IMG/VR virus record: IMGVR_UViG_2565956620_000003
Length of the DNA: 37,546 nt
Source: a virus
Taxonomy: Duplodnaviria > Heunggongvirae > Uroviricota > Caudoviricetes
Direction: 5' to 3' (one strand)
The notes below the pieces were generated by a model. The model had not been told where the DNA came from and ran no database searches. It saw nothing but the letters and a program-made list of their open reading frames with translations. Each line of letters opens with the position of its first letter. Positions within the stretch are counted from its first letter, which is position 1. A program made the position numbers and the translations under genes. Shown here one piece after another: positions 5,180 through 10,254 of the stretch.

Positions 5180-6920
5180 TGCTGCGGGCCGGTGTGGTCA
5201 GCGTGGCCATGACTTCATCCAGTGCGGCTTCCGGTACGCCGTCCGGGTACTGTGCCGTTAACTGGCGGTAATGTTCCGGCGTCCAGGTAAGGCCGTCGGC
5301 GCTGAACTTATCGCGCAGGGCTTTCGCGGCCTCCACATGAGTCATGGGACGTTGTTCAGTGCGCGGCCCGCGTACGTCAGAGGCCTGACCACGCTTCGGC
5401 ATATAGGCCGGAAGTGTGGTGTCGTCGATATGTTTATACGGGTCAAGCCGCCCGCCGAACGGCAGCGCCTTCGCCTTGCGTGCGGCGGCTGCATCTGCGG
5501 CGTTGTCTGTACCGGTAACCAGCGCTTCGGTTTCTTTTGCCGCCATCTGTGCCGGGGTTTCCGGCAGGGCTTTGTAACTTTCGCCAAATACCGCCGCGCC
5601 TTCAGCAAAGCCAAACTCGTTCTTTCTGACCTCTTCGACCAGGAAGAACGTCTCGTGGCCGTCCTCACCGGTCAGAACCACCTGTGCCACATCGCTGCGC
5701 CATGGGTTACGGGTAATCATCAGTTTTTCACCAACCAGTACGCCCGGTACCGTTGATACGTCAAATTCAGTGCCCCGGAACGAGACACGAAGTTTTGGCG
5801 TGACTTTGCGGAGTTCTGGTGCCGCCACAGCCAGTTCACGACATACCTCAACGGAAGGCGCTTTTTTCAGCTGCTCAGCAGTAATCTTCAGCCAGATATC
5901 CGTGCGGGTTTTACCGTGGCGGCTGTGAACAGCCGTGGCGTTAAAGTGGCTGCGCCATTTCGCGGCCAGCGCGTTGAGTTCTTCCAGACTGTGAACCGGC
6001 CGGAACTTCAGACCCGGCTCCAGCTTGCGTTCGATAATGTCACGCGCCTTTTCCACCTGTCCGGTGGCGCGGGCGTTATGCGGCTTGTGCGCTATCAGGT
6101 CGATGCCCAGTGAGCGGCACATGTTTTTCGTCATACCCGCGGTGTTTGCCGAGCCGGGGTCGAGATAGAGTATTTTCGGCACGCCGTGCAGCACGTCTGC
6201 GCCGCCACGCTCCTGCATGGCGTTGATAAGCACAGAACACAGGTTCTCACCTGATTCCGCGCCCGTCACATACTCAACGTAAATCCAGCCGCTGGCATGG
6301 TCGGTAATCTCGTAACTCCACACGCGGTCACTGGCGATACGGGCAAGGTTAGCGGGCTTGTTCTTGTAGAACTTCGCGCTGTCCATCACCTGCAGCCCTT
6401 TATGTCCATTGCTCAGGTAGTAAAGCGTGCAGAGTGAGGCGTCAATCTGCCAGACATGATTGGGATGCAGACTGGCCACTTCGGTATGTGGTGCAGGGGC
6501 ATCCAGTTGTTCCGGGTGCAGGCCATAGTTACGCAGAGCACGGCTGATGGCATCTTCAGACAACGGGAAAAACTCACTGGTGGTTTCATCTGTTCTGCCT
6601 GCGGTGATAAAGCCGTTAGCCCGCAGGGTTTCCACTGCATCTGCGATGGAATAGAGACGCTTACCGTTCTTGCGGGTGGCCTCACGCAGTGTGGCAGATA
6701 TCAGCGCGGCTTCGTCGCGGGTCAGGGCGCTGCGCCCGGCATCGGCGCGTTTTTTGCGTTTATCAGTCACAGATACCTCCTTCAGCCTGCGCAGCAGAGT
6801 GGCGCGGGACATGCCAAGTTCAGCACAGGCAGCGTCGTATATTGCACCGCGTTTACCATGCCCCGCGTCACGTGCCGCGCGGGCTGTTTCAACCAGTTTT
6901 TCAGTCAGTGCCGGGGTCAT
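5151..6920 (-). CDS. DDE transposase (rve/integrase-core type, BcepMu TnpA-like, not MuA-like)
   Basis: 589 aa; N-terminal HTH (GMSRATLLRRLKEV); integrase-core-like motifs (HPNHVWQIDASL, ILYLDPGSANT); sits between early regulators and the MuB-like ATPase. Confidence 0.85.
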   Translation of the reverse strand: MTPALTEKLVETARAARDAGHGKRGAIYDAACAELGMSRATLLRRLKEVSVTDKRKKRADAGRSALTRDEAALISATLREATRKNGKRLYSIADAVETLRANGFITAGRTDETTSEFFPLSEDAISRALRNYGLHPEQLDAPAPHTEVASLHPNHVWQIDASLCTLYYLSNGHKGLQVMDSAKFYKNKPANLARIASDRVWSYEITDHASGWIYVEYVTGAESGENLCSVLINAMQERGGADVLHGVPKILYLDPGSANTAGMTKNMCRSLGIDLIAHKPHNARATGQVEKARDIIERKLEPGLKFRPVHSLEELNALAAKWRSHFNATAVHSRHGKTRTDIWLKITAEQLKKAPSVEVCRELAVAAPELRKVTPKLRVSFRGTEFDVSTVPGVLVGEKLMITRNPWRSDVAQVVLTGEDGHETFFLVEEVRKNEFGFAEGAAVFGESYKALPETPAQMAAKETEALVTGTDNAADAAAARKAKALPFGGRLDPYKHIDDTTLPAYMPKRGQASDVRGPRTEQRPMTHVEAAKALRDKFSADGLTWTPEHYRQLTAQYPDGVPEAALDEVMATLTTPARSSVISIVNGN

Positions 6921-6935
6921 AGCTTGTCTTCCCTG

Positions 6936-7253
6936 TTATCCGATTCTGGCGGCAATTTTTCTGGCGAGGTCGCACAGTGTTTCGCCATCGCAGGTTTTCA
7001 CCACGGTATTTACCGGTTGCGGTGCAACTACCGGGCGTAATGCTGACTGATTCTGCAGACGTCTTATCTGCTGCATCAGCATCACCTCCATCGTCAGTAC
7101 AAACGGGTGCGTCTCCTGTGCGGGTACGCAGATTTCACCGGAAGGGGTCACCACGCGGAAACCCTGCACCATCTCCGGCAGCAGATTACACAGTGCGTGC
7201 CCCAGTGCCTCCGGGCTGTCCATCAGGGTATTTTGTGTGTTATTCGTATTCAT
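6936..7253 (-). CDS. Hypothetical early protein (105 aa)
   Basis: ORF in operon; start shares a base with the upstream stop at 7253. Confidence 0.5.
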   Translation of the reverse strand: MNTNNTQNTLMDSPEALGHALCNLLPEMVQGFRVVTPSGEICVPAQETHPFVLTMEVMLMQQIRRLQNQSALRPVVAPQPVNTVVKTCDGETLCDLARKIAARIG

Positions 7254-8173
7254 TACTGCATATCCTCCGGTCGGTTGATTTCAGGTTCCGGTTCGGTCAG
7301 CCAGGCGGGGGCATCGTTACCCGATGGAGCGGCCTCAAGGTCAAACGTCTCACGTAATGCATGAACACTGCGTTCAATCTGGCAGACCAGACCGGCCATG
7401 AAATCTCTGGGGGTATCGATCATGTTTTTGGTGCAGTATTCACACAGGGTCTCAAAAACACTGGACAGCCGGACGGCGATAGCCGATTCGGCCTCAACCG
7501 CTAATGCCGTCACTTCCGCCCGCAATTTTTTCAGTTCTTCGTCTGGCGGCGGAGGTTGCAGGCGCGATTTCTTCTCCAGTTTTGTGGCCAGTTCGTTGAT
7601 TTTTTCGTCCTTTCCGGCAAGCACCTGTTGCTGAGCTGCGTTGGTTTCGCGCGCTTCACGCAGGGCGGCCTTCAGTTCGCGGCTGGTCATGCGATCAATA
7701 TCATCAAGCGTTGCACCGGCGACGGTTCCACCATCAGCTAATGCGTCGAGTTCTTCGTCATCCAGAACCATCAGTTCATATAACTTGGTTTTTCCCAAAA
7801 CGCTCAGCGCTGAGCGTTTTGGCTGTTCATCTCCATTGCCGAGAAATTTCACGCTGGCCTGCATCATGCGACGAGCTACCTGTGGTGCTAATCCGAGGTC
7901 GTTTTCCAGAATATTTGTGAAATCACCATGCGGTTCATTTTCTTTTAAGATGATCAGCCGCTTACCCGCTTCCAACATAGATTCAGCACTCTGCGCCATA
8001 TAAAAACGTGCTTCGTGAACGATGCGTTCACGTTCATAAGGCAGTCCATCACCAAACTGCTGCATGATCTCCATGCGATGCTGTGTCATGGCATTCAGGC
8101 TGACGTTGAGATCATCCGACAGCGGTACATCGGCGTTCAGTTCAGTGTTAATCGGTGATTTGGTACGTCCCAT
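7253..8173 (-). CDS. Hypothetical early protein with coiled-coil C-terminal half
   Basis: 306 aa; the charged C-terminal half looks coiled-coil; a protein of this kind is common in Mu-like early regions (possibly a DUF3102-type protein, family assignment from memory only). Confidence 0.55.
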   Translation of the reverse strand: MGRTKSPINTELNADVPLSDDLNVSLNAMTQHRMEIMQQFGDGLPYERERIVHEARFYMAQSAESMLEAGKRLIILKENEPHGDFTNILENDLGLAPQVARRMMQASVKFLGNGDEQPKRSALSVLGKTKLYELMVLDDEELDALADGGTVAGATLDDIDRMTSRELKAALREARETNAAQQQVLAGKDEKINELATKLEKKSRLQPPPPDEELKKLRAEVTALAVEAESAIAVRLSSVFETLCEYCTKNMIDTPRDFMAGLVCQIERSVHALRETFDLEAAPSGNDAPAWLTEPEPEINRPEDMQ

Positions 8174-8183
8174 TGATTACTCC

Positions 8184-8498
8184 TTACAAACGACTACCTG
8201 AAATGACACGTTGGTTAATTTCGTTAATACGATCCTGTGCACGTGCCATCTCGTTACTGTGGGCCATGGCGATCTGCAGTAACTGGATGCCCGGTGCAAA
8301 ACGTCCGTTCTCCAGTTTCAGAGCCAGCCCTTCTTCAATGAGGGTGTTGAGTGCCCGGTTGATGTTTGCCGGTGACTCGTGCAGTGCTGTCGCCAGTTCA
8401 CCGTTAGAAATACCGTTCAGGGCATGACCGCGCAGCGCTTTGAGTACCCGGAGGATGCGACTGCCGGAGCTTGAAACATTCGTCTTACTCATCTGCAT
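8184..8498 (-). CDS. Winged-helix DNA-binding protein, hypothetical regulator
   Basis: 104 aa; segment ISNGELATALHESPANINRALNTLIEEGL looks like a winged HTH. Confidence 0.5.
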   Translation of the reverse strand: MQMSKTNVSSSGSRILRVLKALRGHALNGISNGELATALHESPANINRALNTLIEEGLALKLENGRFAPGIQLLQIAMAHSNEMARAQDRINEINQRVISGSRL

Positions 8499-8544
8499 AC
8501 CTCTTTTGCGATATGTGATAACCTTTTACAAAGACTCAAAATAT

Positions 8545-8733
8545 TTAGGCCGCCTGAGCTGTTGATTTCAGTCCCAACTTCACGGCGATTTCATGGGATT
8601 TACCGTAACGGGCTTTGGTCTGCCCGTTGAGAACGCGGTATACCTCATTGCGGTTGTAGCCGTTTTCTTCTGCCCAGCGGGTGAAAGTGATCCCGCGCTG
8701 GCGGAAGAGAGCTTTGACTTGTTCTGCAGTCAT
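8545..8733 (-). CDS. Ner-like (Cro-like) early transcriptional regulator
   Basis: 62 aa; spacing pattern V.A....RG.T......E.GY........L.G.....G..IA..LG matches the Mu Ner / Nlp family; first gene of the leftward early operon, divergent from the repressor. Confidence 0.7.
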   Translation of the reverse strand: MTAEQVKALFRQRGITFTRWAEENGYNRNEVYRVLNGQTKARYGKSHEIAVKLGLKSTAQAA

Positions 8734-8826
8734 CGTTGTCTCCTTTGTTGATGCAATGATGTTTGCCTTATATGTGTTAGATTATTGCTCATAATTATGA
8801 GCATATCAAGATAGAGATTCACTTTT
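8734..8826. promoter_or_regulatory. Divergent early/repressor control region with operator-like palindromes
   Basis: Perfect 18-bp palindrome TGCTCATAATTATGAGCA at 8786-8803; the half-site TTATGAGCA recurs at 8825-8833, overlapping the repressor start codon; AT-rich spacer between divergent genes. Confidence 0.6.
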
Positions 8827-9183
8827 ATGAGCAAAGATATAGGAGAGCGCGTTATTTCTGTGAGGAAGAAAGCAGGGTTGAACCAGAGAGAATTTGCAGC
8901 TCGTTTAGGTATTTCTAATGGTGGTATCAGTCAGATTGAAAATGGAAAGGCGATGCCTGGAGGGGAGTTTCTGTTAAAGATGCATCAAGAGTTTAATGTT
9001 GATGTAAATTGGTTGCTCACTGGAATGAGCACAGATGGTATGACTAGAAACCAGAATCAAATTTCCCCAGAAAAACAAAAACTAATAGATACTTTTGACG
9101 ACATGACACCAGACCAACAACGCTCATTTCTTGAGATTGGGCGATTCTATACTCAGCCAAAACCAGGAAAAATCGCAGGCTGA
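8827..9183 (+). CDS. XRE-family HTH repressor (prophage maintenance repressor candidate)
   Basis: 118 aa; classic Cro/C1-type HTH (LNQREFAARLGISNGGISQIENGK); divergent from the Ner-like gene. Confidence 0.8.
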   Translation: MSKDIGERVISVRKKAGLNQREFAARLGISNGGISQIENGKAMPGGEFLLKMHQEFNVDVNWLLTGMSTDGMTRNQNQISPEKQKLIDTFDDMTPDQQRSFLEIGRFYTQPKPGKIAG

Positions 9184-9269
9184 TACTGACCCGGACACAA
9201 AGGACAGGTGGTTGATCTGGATGCTTTCAGAAAACATCGCCAGTGACATAGTGGAAGTTGTTTGGTTTA

Positions 9270-9300
9270 CCGGAAAGCATTGTGCTTTCCGGTTTTGTTT
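9270..9300 (+). terminator. Rho-independent terminator after the repressor gene
   Basis: 9-bp perfect stem CCGGAAAGC / GCTTTCCGG with loop ATTGT, followed by TTTTGTTT; sits between the convergent repressor and methyltransferase genes. Confidence 0.6.
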
Positions 9301-10064
9301 CAGAAGTTGCAGATTAGCAGTTCACGGCGCGGCGTGGGTTTACCCGCCAGACTGTAGTTGATATTCACTGTCTGTATGTTCAGTCCAGTGAACACCTCGC
9401 GCATCTGCGGGATGTCGTTCACCGAAATTATCATTTTTCCTCTGATGCACCGGGCCAGCTCTGCCAGCCGCGAGTAGTTCCCTTCAGGAAAATCCACACC
9501 ATAGCCTTCCGTACCCAGGTACGGTGGGTCGCAGTAGAACAGCGTGTGCGGACGATCATAACGCTCAATGCACTGTTGCCAGTCCATGTGTTCTATGACT
9601 GTTCTGGAAAGCCGCAGGTGTGCCGCTGACAGTTCTTCTTCAATACGTAGCAGGTTGAAGCGTGGCGGGGATGTGGTGGAGGTACCGAAGCTGTGCTCTG
9701 CCACCTTGCCGCCAAACGCCTGCTTCTGAAGGTAGTAGAACCGTGCCGCACGCTGGATATCCGTCAGTGTTTCTTCCGGGGTGATCTGCAGCCATTTGTA
9801 GATCTGACGGCTGACCAGCGCCCATTTGAACTGGCGGACAAATTCTTCCAGGTGATGCTTTACCACCCGGTACAGATTCACCAGTTCACCGTTGATATCA
9901 TTGATGACTTCGATCTTGCCGGGTGTCTTAAGAAAATAGAGCGCTGCTGCCCCACAAAACGGCTCCACATAACATTCATGCGCCGGAAACAGCGGCAGAA
10001 TGTGTTTTGCAAGGCGGCGTTTGCCACCAATCCACGGCACGATGGGTAATGTCTGCATTTTCAT
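9300..10064 (-). CDS. Dam-family N6-adenine DNA methyltransferase (orphan)
   Basis: N-terminal PWIGGKRRLAKHILPLFP motif and catalytic DPPY motif (FYCDPPYLGTEGYG). Start placed at ATG 10064 (MKMQTLPIVPW); the track ORF extends to 10154 without support. No adjacent restriction endonuclease gene. Confidence 0.85.
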   Translation of the reverse strand: MKMQTLPIVPWIGGKRRLAKHILPLFPAHECYVEPFCGAAALYFLKTPGKIEVINDINGELVNLYRVVKHHLEEFVRQFKWALVSRQIYKWLQITPEETLTDIQRAARFYYLQKQAFGGKVAEHSFGTSTTSPPRFNLLRIEEELSAAHLRLSRTVIEHMDWQQCIERYDRPHTLFYCDPPYLGTEGYGVDFPEGNYSRLAELARCIRGKMIISVNDIPQMREVFTGLNIQTVNINYSLAGKPTPRRELLICNF

Positions 10065-10254
10065 AATCTGCAAGCCTTTTACAATTATTAAAAAATATGG
10101 CAGTCTGGTCAGGTCTCGCGAGACTGACTGAACCTTGGTCGGCTCACAGCGCATTCCTGTGGGGCGATGACCAGCCCGGCTTTCGGGTGCCGGGCTGGTC
10201 GTTCTTTCATGATGCGGCAGGGATGGCGGGATTTCTGTTAATGTGGTTTAGGGA

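Follow-up and report, generated by a model that had tools for sequence, protein, structure and literature searches.

Putative operators of a small repressor in the divergent early region of a BcepMu-like transposable prophage of Escherichia coli

The divergent region, its palindromes and the repressor

The divergent early regulatory region of a transposable prophage was analysed in a 37,546-nt (37.5 kb) stretch of DNA, record IMGVR_UViG_2565956620_000003, the whole of which is referred to here as the window. The region of 93 bp lies between two genes that point away from each other. On the minus strand is gp16 (8545-8733), the first gene of the early operon, encoding a small Ner-like DNA-binding protein (TIGR04111 BcepMu_gp16), and on the plus strand is a repressor gene of 118 aa (8827-9183), which carries an HTH_3 domain and for which PGAP uses the same ATG at 8827. 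The leftward early operon starting from 8733 encodes the 62-aa gp16-family protein, a 104-aa protein with an IclR-type helix-turn-helix (HTH), a DUF3102 protein, an rve transposase and a MuB-like AAA ATPase, and the domain matches of the profile search include rve and AAA_22. The window is a BcepMu-like (Bcepmuvirus) transposable prophage in E. coli. The segment 8100-9400 showed 100% identity to Escherichia phage PhiKM (PQ738613.1), genus Bcepmuvirus, and at least 99% identity to about 390 of the 5,426 complete E. coli genomes surveyed, many of them of the pandemic ST131 lineage and EC958 among them.

The sequence read and a repeat finder both revealed a perfect 18-bp palindrome, TGCTCATAATTATGAGCA, at 8786-8803, confirming what an earlier sequence-only reading had reported for this region. 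The palindrome has the form TGCTCA-TAATTA-TGAGCA and is designated O1, the primary operator. Promoters were searched by a sigma70 consensus scan of 6900-9350 on both strands, and the scan gave only one sigma70-like promoter. This early promoter, Pe, is on the minus strand and directed toward gp16; its -35 hexamer TTGATA (8804-8809) and -10 hexamer AATAAT (8781-8786) agree with the consensus at 10 of 12 positions, and the 17-bp spacer between them is the O1 palindrome itself. A protein bound at O1 would occlude Pe.

The frequency of the half-site was then compared with chance. The 9-mer TTATGAGCA occurs exactly three times in the window, counting either strand, while about 0.29 copies are expected for a random 9-mer, and all three copies fall within 48 bp. 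When one mismatch is permitted, the window has 12 copies where 6.9 are expected, a weak excess, and 3 of 100 shuffles have at least as many; the frequency stands above chance for exact copies and hardly so for near copies. The further copy lies at 8825-8833, across the repressor ATG (8827), where a recurring half-site had been proposed. The exact copy is present, but it is not isolated, as it forms the good arm of a degenerate second operator, O2, at 8816-8833 (GATTCA-CTTTTA-TGAGCA, GATTCACTTTTATGAGCA). This imperfect 18-bp site matches O1 at 12 of 18 positions and at 9 of 12 arm positions, leaving three arm mismatches; the centres of O1 and O2 are 30 bp apart, and the right arm of O2 holds the repressor ATG and codon 2, AGC.

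The search for additional copies showed no other exact 9-mer in the window and revealed a third, exact-arm operator which the sequence-only reading had missed. This site, O3 (TGCTCA-CTGGAA-TGAGCA, 9014-9031), is an auxiliary operator within the repressor gene; it has both arms exact, where about 0.002 such matches are expected per window, and covers repressor codons 63-69 (LLTGMST), at centre-to-centre distances of 228 bp to O1 and 198 bp to O2. The probable recognised unit is TGCTCA-N6-TGAGCA with a variable centre, and not the 9-mer. Sites with at most two arm mismatches are only marginally enriched in the window, four being present besides O1 and O3 against about 1.4 expected in total under uniform base frequencies. 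A symmetric two-mismatch arm variant, TGTTCA-GTCCAG-TGAACA, is located at 9377-9394 in the 3' end of the dam gene (minus strand), 363 bp past O3, and may be due to chance given this marginal enrichment.

The 118-aa protein was analysed by profile search, structure search and modelling. Its N-terminal HTH matched HTH_3 (PF01381) with E=4.6e-15 and the 434 repressor with E=3e-8, and among solved structures the protein is closest to the DNA-binding domains of the repressors of 434 and P22 (c2); the superposition on the P22 c2 N-terminal domain gave a template modelling (TM) score of 0.91 and a root mean square deviation (rmsd) of 1.2 Å. The AlphaFold model, with a mean predicted local distance difference test (pLDDT) of 80, shows a five-helix HTH at residues ~5-66, a disordered linker and a C-terminal two-helix hook (helices 81-91 and 95-109). 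The profile search gave no match to the Peptidase_S24 domain in the protein, the C-terminal part being the two-helix hairpin. The best full-length structural match was SinR (1b0n_A), with 110 aligned columns, 24% identity and a poor superposition (rmsd 10.8 Å); SinR was also a sequence match to residues 5-106. The identity to ORF18 of phage B3 is 25% over 100 aa. The repressor most likely binds as a dimer to TGCTCA-N6-TGAGCA.

Operator position and specificity among related loci

About 160 related loci were gathered by gp16 anchoring from genomes and viral contigs, and six E. coli variants were added. In the E. coli variants the homology to the window ends at 8785/8786, which is the left edge of the palindrome. 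The aligned upstream regions revealed more than 20 immunity types, each having its own palindrome between a TTGAcA-like -35 and an nATAAT -10, for example GGTGAG-N5-CTGCACC, TATCCCA-N4-TGGGATA, GAGAAC-N4-GTTCTC, ATACAC-N4-GTGTAT and TGTGATC-N4-GATCACA. Of 166 related loci, 141 carry, 40-80 nt before gp16, a Pe-like promoter with the TTGAcA-like -35. Among the 77 distinct promoter strings, 61% showed at least seven of nine complementary pairs centred in the spacer, compared to 1.3% of background axes. Within the type of the window, the arms TGCTCA/TGAGCA are invariant from Enterobacterales through Pseudomonas, and the central six bases vary (TAATTA, TTATTT, CAATAA, AAATAA, AAATAT, TTATTA, TTTAAA), which corresponds to the pattern of 434 and P22, where the arms are contacted and the centre is not.

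The relation between the repressor and its palindrome was examined pairwise using Mantel analysis, which was used instead of single-linkage clustering because the latter, at 45% identity, chained nearly all repressors into one cluster. The identity of the repressor HTH correlated with the identity of the operator 18-mer (r=0.74), a value reached by none of 2000 permutations. The mean operator identity was 0.28-0.31 where HTH identity was below 40%, 0.39-0.51 at 40-60% and 0.76-0.93 above 60%. The 40-nt leader beyond the -10, opposite the operator, showed no relation to HTH identity (Spearman 0.03), and the palindrome sequence was independent of gp16, the IclR-like protein, the leader and the repressor C-terminal domain. 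Individual recognition helices pair with individual arms: GISNGGISQIENGK with GCTCA-N6-TGAGC, GVAKRTFIDWEK with GTGAG-N5-CTGCAC, GASYKSQLRWEKDE with ATCCCA-N4-TGGGAT, and GVSREMWGKYERG with GAGAAC-N4-GTTCTC.

Natural chimeras gave the same picture. The GVAKRT/EIAKRT-type HTH occurs with two unrelated C-terminal domains and retains the same operator, while the C-terminal domain of the window, when placed on other HTH domains (loci L179-181 and L182; proteins P0138, P0140 and P0143), accompanies other palindromes. These comparisons suggest that operator specificity is carried by the HTH domain of the repressor and that the two-fold symmetric operator it reads overlaps the lytic promoter. The proposal that the repressor shuts off the early operon gains strong comparative support from the position in the Pe spacer, the more than 20 type-specific palindromes, the HTH co-variation, the domain swaps and the homologous system of phage Fc02 described below. 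O1 is very probably the site through which the small repressor shuts off the transposition genes.

The chimeras also carry information about the protein. They combine the C-terminal 50-60 residues of the window repressor, at about 85% identity, with an unrelated HTH, and the junction is the (L/V)TG motif in the middle of O3; L179-L181 retain the right arm TGAGCA of O3 and have lost the left arm. By this comparison the C-terminal hook is exchanged freely as a module. The HTH and operator type of the window was also found outside the gp16 context, in L200, which adjoins a Mor-family gene, and in L201, a phage in which the neighbour is of the pRha family, the C-terminal domain is another one and the start codon is GTG. 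Judged from these loci, the immunity cassette moves between phage families.

The distribution in E. coli genomes was surveyed separately for the two sides of the junction. The early segment 8184-8785 has 682 occurrences in 623 genomes and the immunity segment 8786-9183 has 399 in 397 genomes; strain AR_0067 holds two prophages of the family and one window-type immunity region. Double lysogens of the family are almost always heteroimmune, as is expected if 8786-9183 determines immunity, with a weight that is limited by the clonal structure of the genomes.

Auxiliary sites, autoregulation and competing explanations

The layout seen at O2 recurs in the family. In 63 of 81 distinct regions the best second copy of the operator is separated from O1 by 29-34 bp, and copies at this distance recur across unrelated arm sequences. 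An in-frame repressor start codon lies inside the footprint of the second copy in 71 of 80 regions, a count which the choice of starts in the relatives somewhat favours. Both arms of O2 are conserved among same-type relatives; the weak left arm reads (G/T)ATTCA or a close variant there and comes near to perfect in one Pseudomonas member. Each right half-site is followed, at an offset of 4 bp, by AAGATAGAG or AAGATATAG (8808-8816 and 8834-8842), which hints that the right halves of O1 and O2 share an older duplication or belong to a longer recognition element.

Every same-type enterobacterial lineage that retains this C-terminal domain has O3 with both arms perfect at +187 relative to the ATG, over a range of protein identity from 78% down to 57%. 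O3 is kept in L198 despite a change of the peptide from LLTG to LLSG. Synonymous sites are nearly saturated among nine distinct repressor genes, and in residues 1-69 only 4 of the 47 amino-acid-invariant degenerate codons are also nucleotide-invariant; three of these four are in the arms of O2 or O3 (Fisher p=0.0011). The invariant codons are 2 AGC in the O2 arm, 20, and 64 CTC and 68 AGC in the O3 arms, whereas the third positions of Thr and Gly in the centre of O3 vary. The codon comparison shows that synonymous positions of O2 and O3 are under selection, and O3 appears to be what loop-type repression calls for, an auxiliary operator at a distance that is selected as DNA. The GTGAG/CTGCAC type has a perfect intragenic palindrome of its own, GTGCAGTTATCTGCAC, at codons 44-48, which is invariant in 13 distinct genes (p=0.023). 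A third operator in every immunity type was considered and rejected, convincing intragenic sites being confined to the type of the window and the GTGAG/CTGCAC type.

The promoter of the repressor gene was also sought. A candidate extended -10 element of this promoter, Pc, is TGtTAGATT at 8775-8783 on the plus strand; the assignment is tentative, and the element overlaps the -10 of Pe. The pattern TGnTAnnnT is present at this position in 38 of 84 distinct related regions, compared to 0.8% of background windows. Overlapping pC2/pE promoters have been predicted in B3 and Fc02 (PMC9936078). Autoregulation of the repressor by these sites, as the sequence-only reading had proposed, is plausible and is graded no higher because the repressor promoter was not located. 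A negative direction is likelier, because O1, O2 and O3 would be at or downstream of the transcript start with either promoter origin.

Several other explanations of these sites were weighed. The genes for two other small HTH proteins, gp16 and the IclR-like protein, lie beside the region, and Ner of phage Mu binds between divergent promoters, so the palindrome might be the site of one of these Cro-type regulators rather than of the 118-aa protein. The related loci speak strongly against this. An identical gp16 (WP_000123378.1) stands beside TGCTCA...TGAGCA in EC958 and beside the GTGAG-type GGTGCAG...CTCACC in SCU-101, an identical IclR-like protein (WP_000047758.1) also stands beside two operator types, and operator identity follows the repressor HTH and not the leader on the gp16 side. 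The assignment of the palindrome to gp16 or the IclR-like protein has a very low probability, and binding of O1 by the Ner-like gp16 in particular is very unlikely; any site of gp16 should be in the co-inherited block 8734-8785. An origin by chance, or as the site of a host factor such as LexA, integration host factor (IHF) or a MerR-type spacer activator unrelated to the phage repressor, is the most improbable account. In its favour, AT-rich spacers can bind nucleoid proteins, and palindromes of this length are not rare in shuffled DNA, as quantified below. A single host factor is, however, incompatible with type-specific palindromes at an invariant position in more than 20 types; the spacer has the optimal 17 bp, unlike the 19-20 bp of MerR-type promoters, no LexA box was found, and the three exact 9-mers are clustered.

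The remaining two accounts concern the copies on the repressor side. In one, a repressor mRNA that begins upstream of O1 base-pairs its O1 left arm to the AUGAGCA around the start codon, or folds O1 into a hairpin, and translation of the repressor is controlled in this way with DNA binding as a secondary matter. The inverted repeat 8778-8794 / 8825-8841 is indeed 82% complementary, and the minimum-free-energy fold of 8770-8850 pairs the repeat segments and buries the AUG. This complementarity is automatic from two copies of a palindromic site, and the fold is no better than that of shuffled sequences (z = -1.5; 9 of 200 shuffles fold at least as well), for which reason RNA structure in 8770-8850 was rejected as the main mechanism. 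A transcript begun at the candidate Pc would lack most of the O1 left arm, and pairing in RNA leaves unexplained the fixed position in the Pe spacer, the HTH co-variation and O3; the account is improbable. In the other, O1 is a real operator and the copies over the ATG and inside the gene are by-products of the translation start, the WLLTG(M/V)S peptide and shared ancestry. The three arm mismatches of O2 agree with this, and so does the LLTG motif encoded by O3, which is widely conserved in this HTH class, together with the loss of O3 in some members and the rarity of strong third sites in other types. Against it, synonymous positions are fixed in the arms and have changed nearly everywhere else, while the Thr and Gly third positions of the uncontacted centre vary; O3 outlasts the amino-acid change in L198; the other immunity type has evolved its own intragenic palindrome with different codons; and O2-like copies at 29-34 bp recur across unrelated arms. 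A by-product origin of the two copies is therefore considered unlikely, though it deserves some weight.

The preferred reading is that O1, O2 and O3 are operators of the 118-aa repressor and constitute the immunity switch of the BcepMu-like prophage. A number of observations weigh against it or reduce its force. A perfect palindrome of at least 18 bp was present in 16% of dinucleotide shuffles of the window (0.17 per shuffle), and because of this the case for O1 rests on its position and on the comparison and not on its existence. The support for binding of the repressor to these operators in the phage of the window is comparative, and the related loci are phylogenetically non-independent, so that the permutation p-values exaggerate independence. 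The left arm of O2 shares just 3 of 6 bases with that of O1, and part of the conservation of O2 could reflect the translation start region. O3 is missing from the Pseudomonas members and from L201, and most other immunity types have no strong third site; for this reason it is not essential to the architecture, and it is regarded as an optional reinforcement outside the core design. The oligomeric state is suggested by a monomer model with a flexible linker and a poor superposition on SinR. As to autoregulation, the scan of 6900-9350 gave no plus-strand consensus promoter for the repressor, and the lysogenic repressor transcript of Fc02 apparently comes from a far-upstream distal promoter (PMC9936078). 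With these points taken into account, the preferred reading is given a probability of about 0.8.

The mechanism that we infer, including the binding, its stoichiometry, cooperativity, looping, the oligomeric state, the position of Pc, the direction of autoregulation and the inducing signal, is as follows. A repressor dimer at O1 would exclude RNA polymerase from Pe and silence the operon of gp16, transposase and MuB-like protein, giving lysogeny and immunity. O2 would be a weaker site, three helical turns from O1 and placed over the repressor translation start. O2 and O3 would probably help to load O1, by pairwise cooperativity and by a loop of about 200 bp closed by a higher oligomer, and would probably also limit repressor synthesis through negative autoregulation, because they are at or downstream of any plausible repressor promoter. 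The inducing signal is likely an antirepressor or a protease, given that the repressor has no peptidase domain.

The putative operators indicate how the transposition and lytic genes stay silent and which co-resident relatives are heteroimmune in a prophage that is widespread in complete E. coli genomes. The comparison gives testable repressor-operator pairs of dozens of specificities in one promoter frame, which are useful for specificity codes and synthetic circuits, and it presents a case in which an operator hidden in coding sequence constrains synonymous sites. The switch is of a textbook kind, in a phage family in which it had been unmapped. No prior description of these operators was found in the searchable literature on BcepMu, B3, D3112 and Fc02, where the coverage of subscription papers was incomplete and an earlier description is possible. 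More tentatively, and with a likelihood well below even, the BcepMu/B3 cassette may amount to a natural collection of over 20 orthogonal pairs of small repressor and operator on a constant promoter scaffold with a readable helix-to-arm code, in which intragenic operators have arisen independently in at least two specificities, a SinR-like oligomer clamps Pe by looping about 200 bp over the repressor's own gene, and induction proceeds through an antirepressor or protease acting on the shared, swapped C-terminal hook and not through RecA cleavage, for which the repressor has no peptidase domain.

Neighbouring features and comparison with known systems

The surroundings of the divergent region were also examined. 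The gp16 protein scored 97.4 bits against TIGR04111 BcepMu_gp16 (cut-off 34) and is 71% identical to B3 ORF17, and its score against Pfam HTH_35 (Ner/Nlp) was 17.9 bits, under the cut-off of 25 (E=0.0032). A search of the Protein Data Bank (PDB) with gp16 found no relative, and the name 'Ner-like' rests on gene position and on annotation in other records. Just 5' of the gp16 ribosome-binding site is a leader block, TGATGCAATGATGTTTG (CAAACATCATTGCATCA in the gp16 sense), at 8749-8765, which is co-inherited with gp16 and kept across Enterobacterales, Pseudomonas and betaproteobacteria even where the leader is otherwise divergent. This block may be bound by the Ner-like gp16 or may act as an RNA element.

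Within the DUF3102 gene, at 7795-7822 on the minus strand, is a 28-bp perfect palindrome, CCAAAACGCTCAGCGCTGAGCGTTTTGG, which encodes PKRSALSVLG. Many related loci have a perfect palindrome of 24-32 bp at the equivalent position, with a varying inner sequence and a constant frame of CAAA(A/T), a GC-rich arm, ACGT or GCGC, the arm and (A/T)TTTG. The constancy of the frame with a varied interior indicates that symmetry is held by compensatory changes while the peptide changes, and the element could be a bidirectional terminator-like hairpin or the site of a dimeric protein. It contains GCTCA..TGAGC, and was rejected as a repressor site because it is independent of immunity type.

A terminator-like hairpin with an 11-bp stem followed by TTTTGTTT lies 3' of the repressor gene at 9269-9293 on the plus strand. 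It is placed between the repressor gene and a convergent gene for a D12-class Dam methyltransferase (9300-10154), as also in the E. coli variants L002-L004; some variants (L005-L007) have other genes there. The GenBank record of PhiKM does not annotate the 118-aa repressor and shows instead an opposite-strand open reading frame (ORF) of 41 aa (L001 4635-5200, equivalent to window 8734-9299), while RefSeq genomes do annotate the repressor, for example as WP_000031013.1. The present analysis corrects this gap in the PhiKM record. In the record of Fc02 (L197, MH719189.1), the annotated repressor coding sequence starts at ATC (locus 1022); an in-frame ATG 12 nt upstream (1010), inside the second operator-like site, is the more plausible start (region 1010-1024).

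Among known systems, the present one is a member of the BcepMu/B3 regulatory module, and its repressor is neither of the Mu c type nor a LexA-like CI repressor. The Pseudomonas phages B3 and Fc02 (Beetrevirus) have the homologous module, a divergent repC / ner-like switch with pE and pC2 in the same gene order; an 18-bp palindrome occupies the spacer of pE, and the repressor ATG is covered by a second site. The pE spacer of Fc02 reads TGGGAC-ATCAAA-GTCCCA, with a half-conserved second copy over the in-frame ATG. Experimental work on Fc02 has shown that a shift to 40 °C in a temperature-sensitive repressor mutant leads to a burst of pE transcription into the ner-like operon; the same paper describes the promoters and not the operators (PMC9936078). 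The operator sequences of Fc02 differ from those of the window, the O1-O2 spacing is 24 bp there against 30 bp here, and Fc02 has extra genes and a distal pC1 promoter, of which no counterpart was found in the window scan of 6900-9350.

Phage Mu is similar in that its c repressor diverges from an operon of a small Ner-like protein, transposase and MuB-like ATPase. The repressor here has an XRE/434-type HTH and not the winged helix of Mu c / MuA-I-alpha, and gp16 is below the Pfam threshold for the Ner family HTH_35. The regulatory region of Mu is an O1-O3 array of about 200 bp with an IHF site, whereas that of the window is about 93 bp and contains 18-bp palindromes. SinR/SinI and the SinR-like phage repressors (phi106 repressor-AimX) share the layout of HTH, linker and C-terminal two-helix hook. 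The superposition is poor (rmsd 10.8 Å) owing to the flexible linker, and SinR-type tetramerisation or inactivation by an antirepressor is a candidate mechanism here.

The three-operator logic recalls the lactococcal phage TP901-1 and the lac O2 site. TP901-1 has three palindromic operators (OR, OL, OD), divergent promoters and a small second regulator (PMC7250872), and its CI, which acts with MOR, has an HTH N-terminal domain and an oligomerising C-terminal part with no peptidase. This CI is a hexameric protein of 180 aa, the site positions differ, and the sequence relationship established here goes no further than the HTH class. The lac O2 operator in lacZ is likewise an auxiliary operator in coding sequence downstream of the main operator, with constrained synonymous positions and looping by an oligomeric repressor expected; the lac protein belongs to an unrelated family, the auxiliary site of the window is in the repressor's own gene, and the loop here would be a prediction of the model.

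The 434 and P22 c2 systems have the same HTH fold, a repressor diverging from lytic genes, and palindromes of 14-18 bp whose outer arms are contacted and whose AT-rich centre varies and is not contacted; neighbouring sites are two to three helical turns apart. The repressor of the window differs in having no S24 peptidase or RecA-cleavable C-terminal domain, and the region has two adjacent sites in place of a tripartite OR, with the main operator in the promoter spacer and the transposition operon as the lytic operon. Taken together, the features are consistent with a switch that operates in the manner of the 434/P22 repressors and their operators and is carried by a transposable phage of the Mu-like kind.

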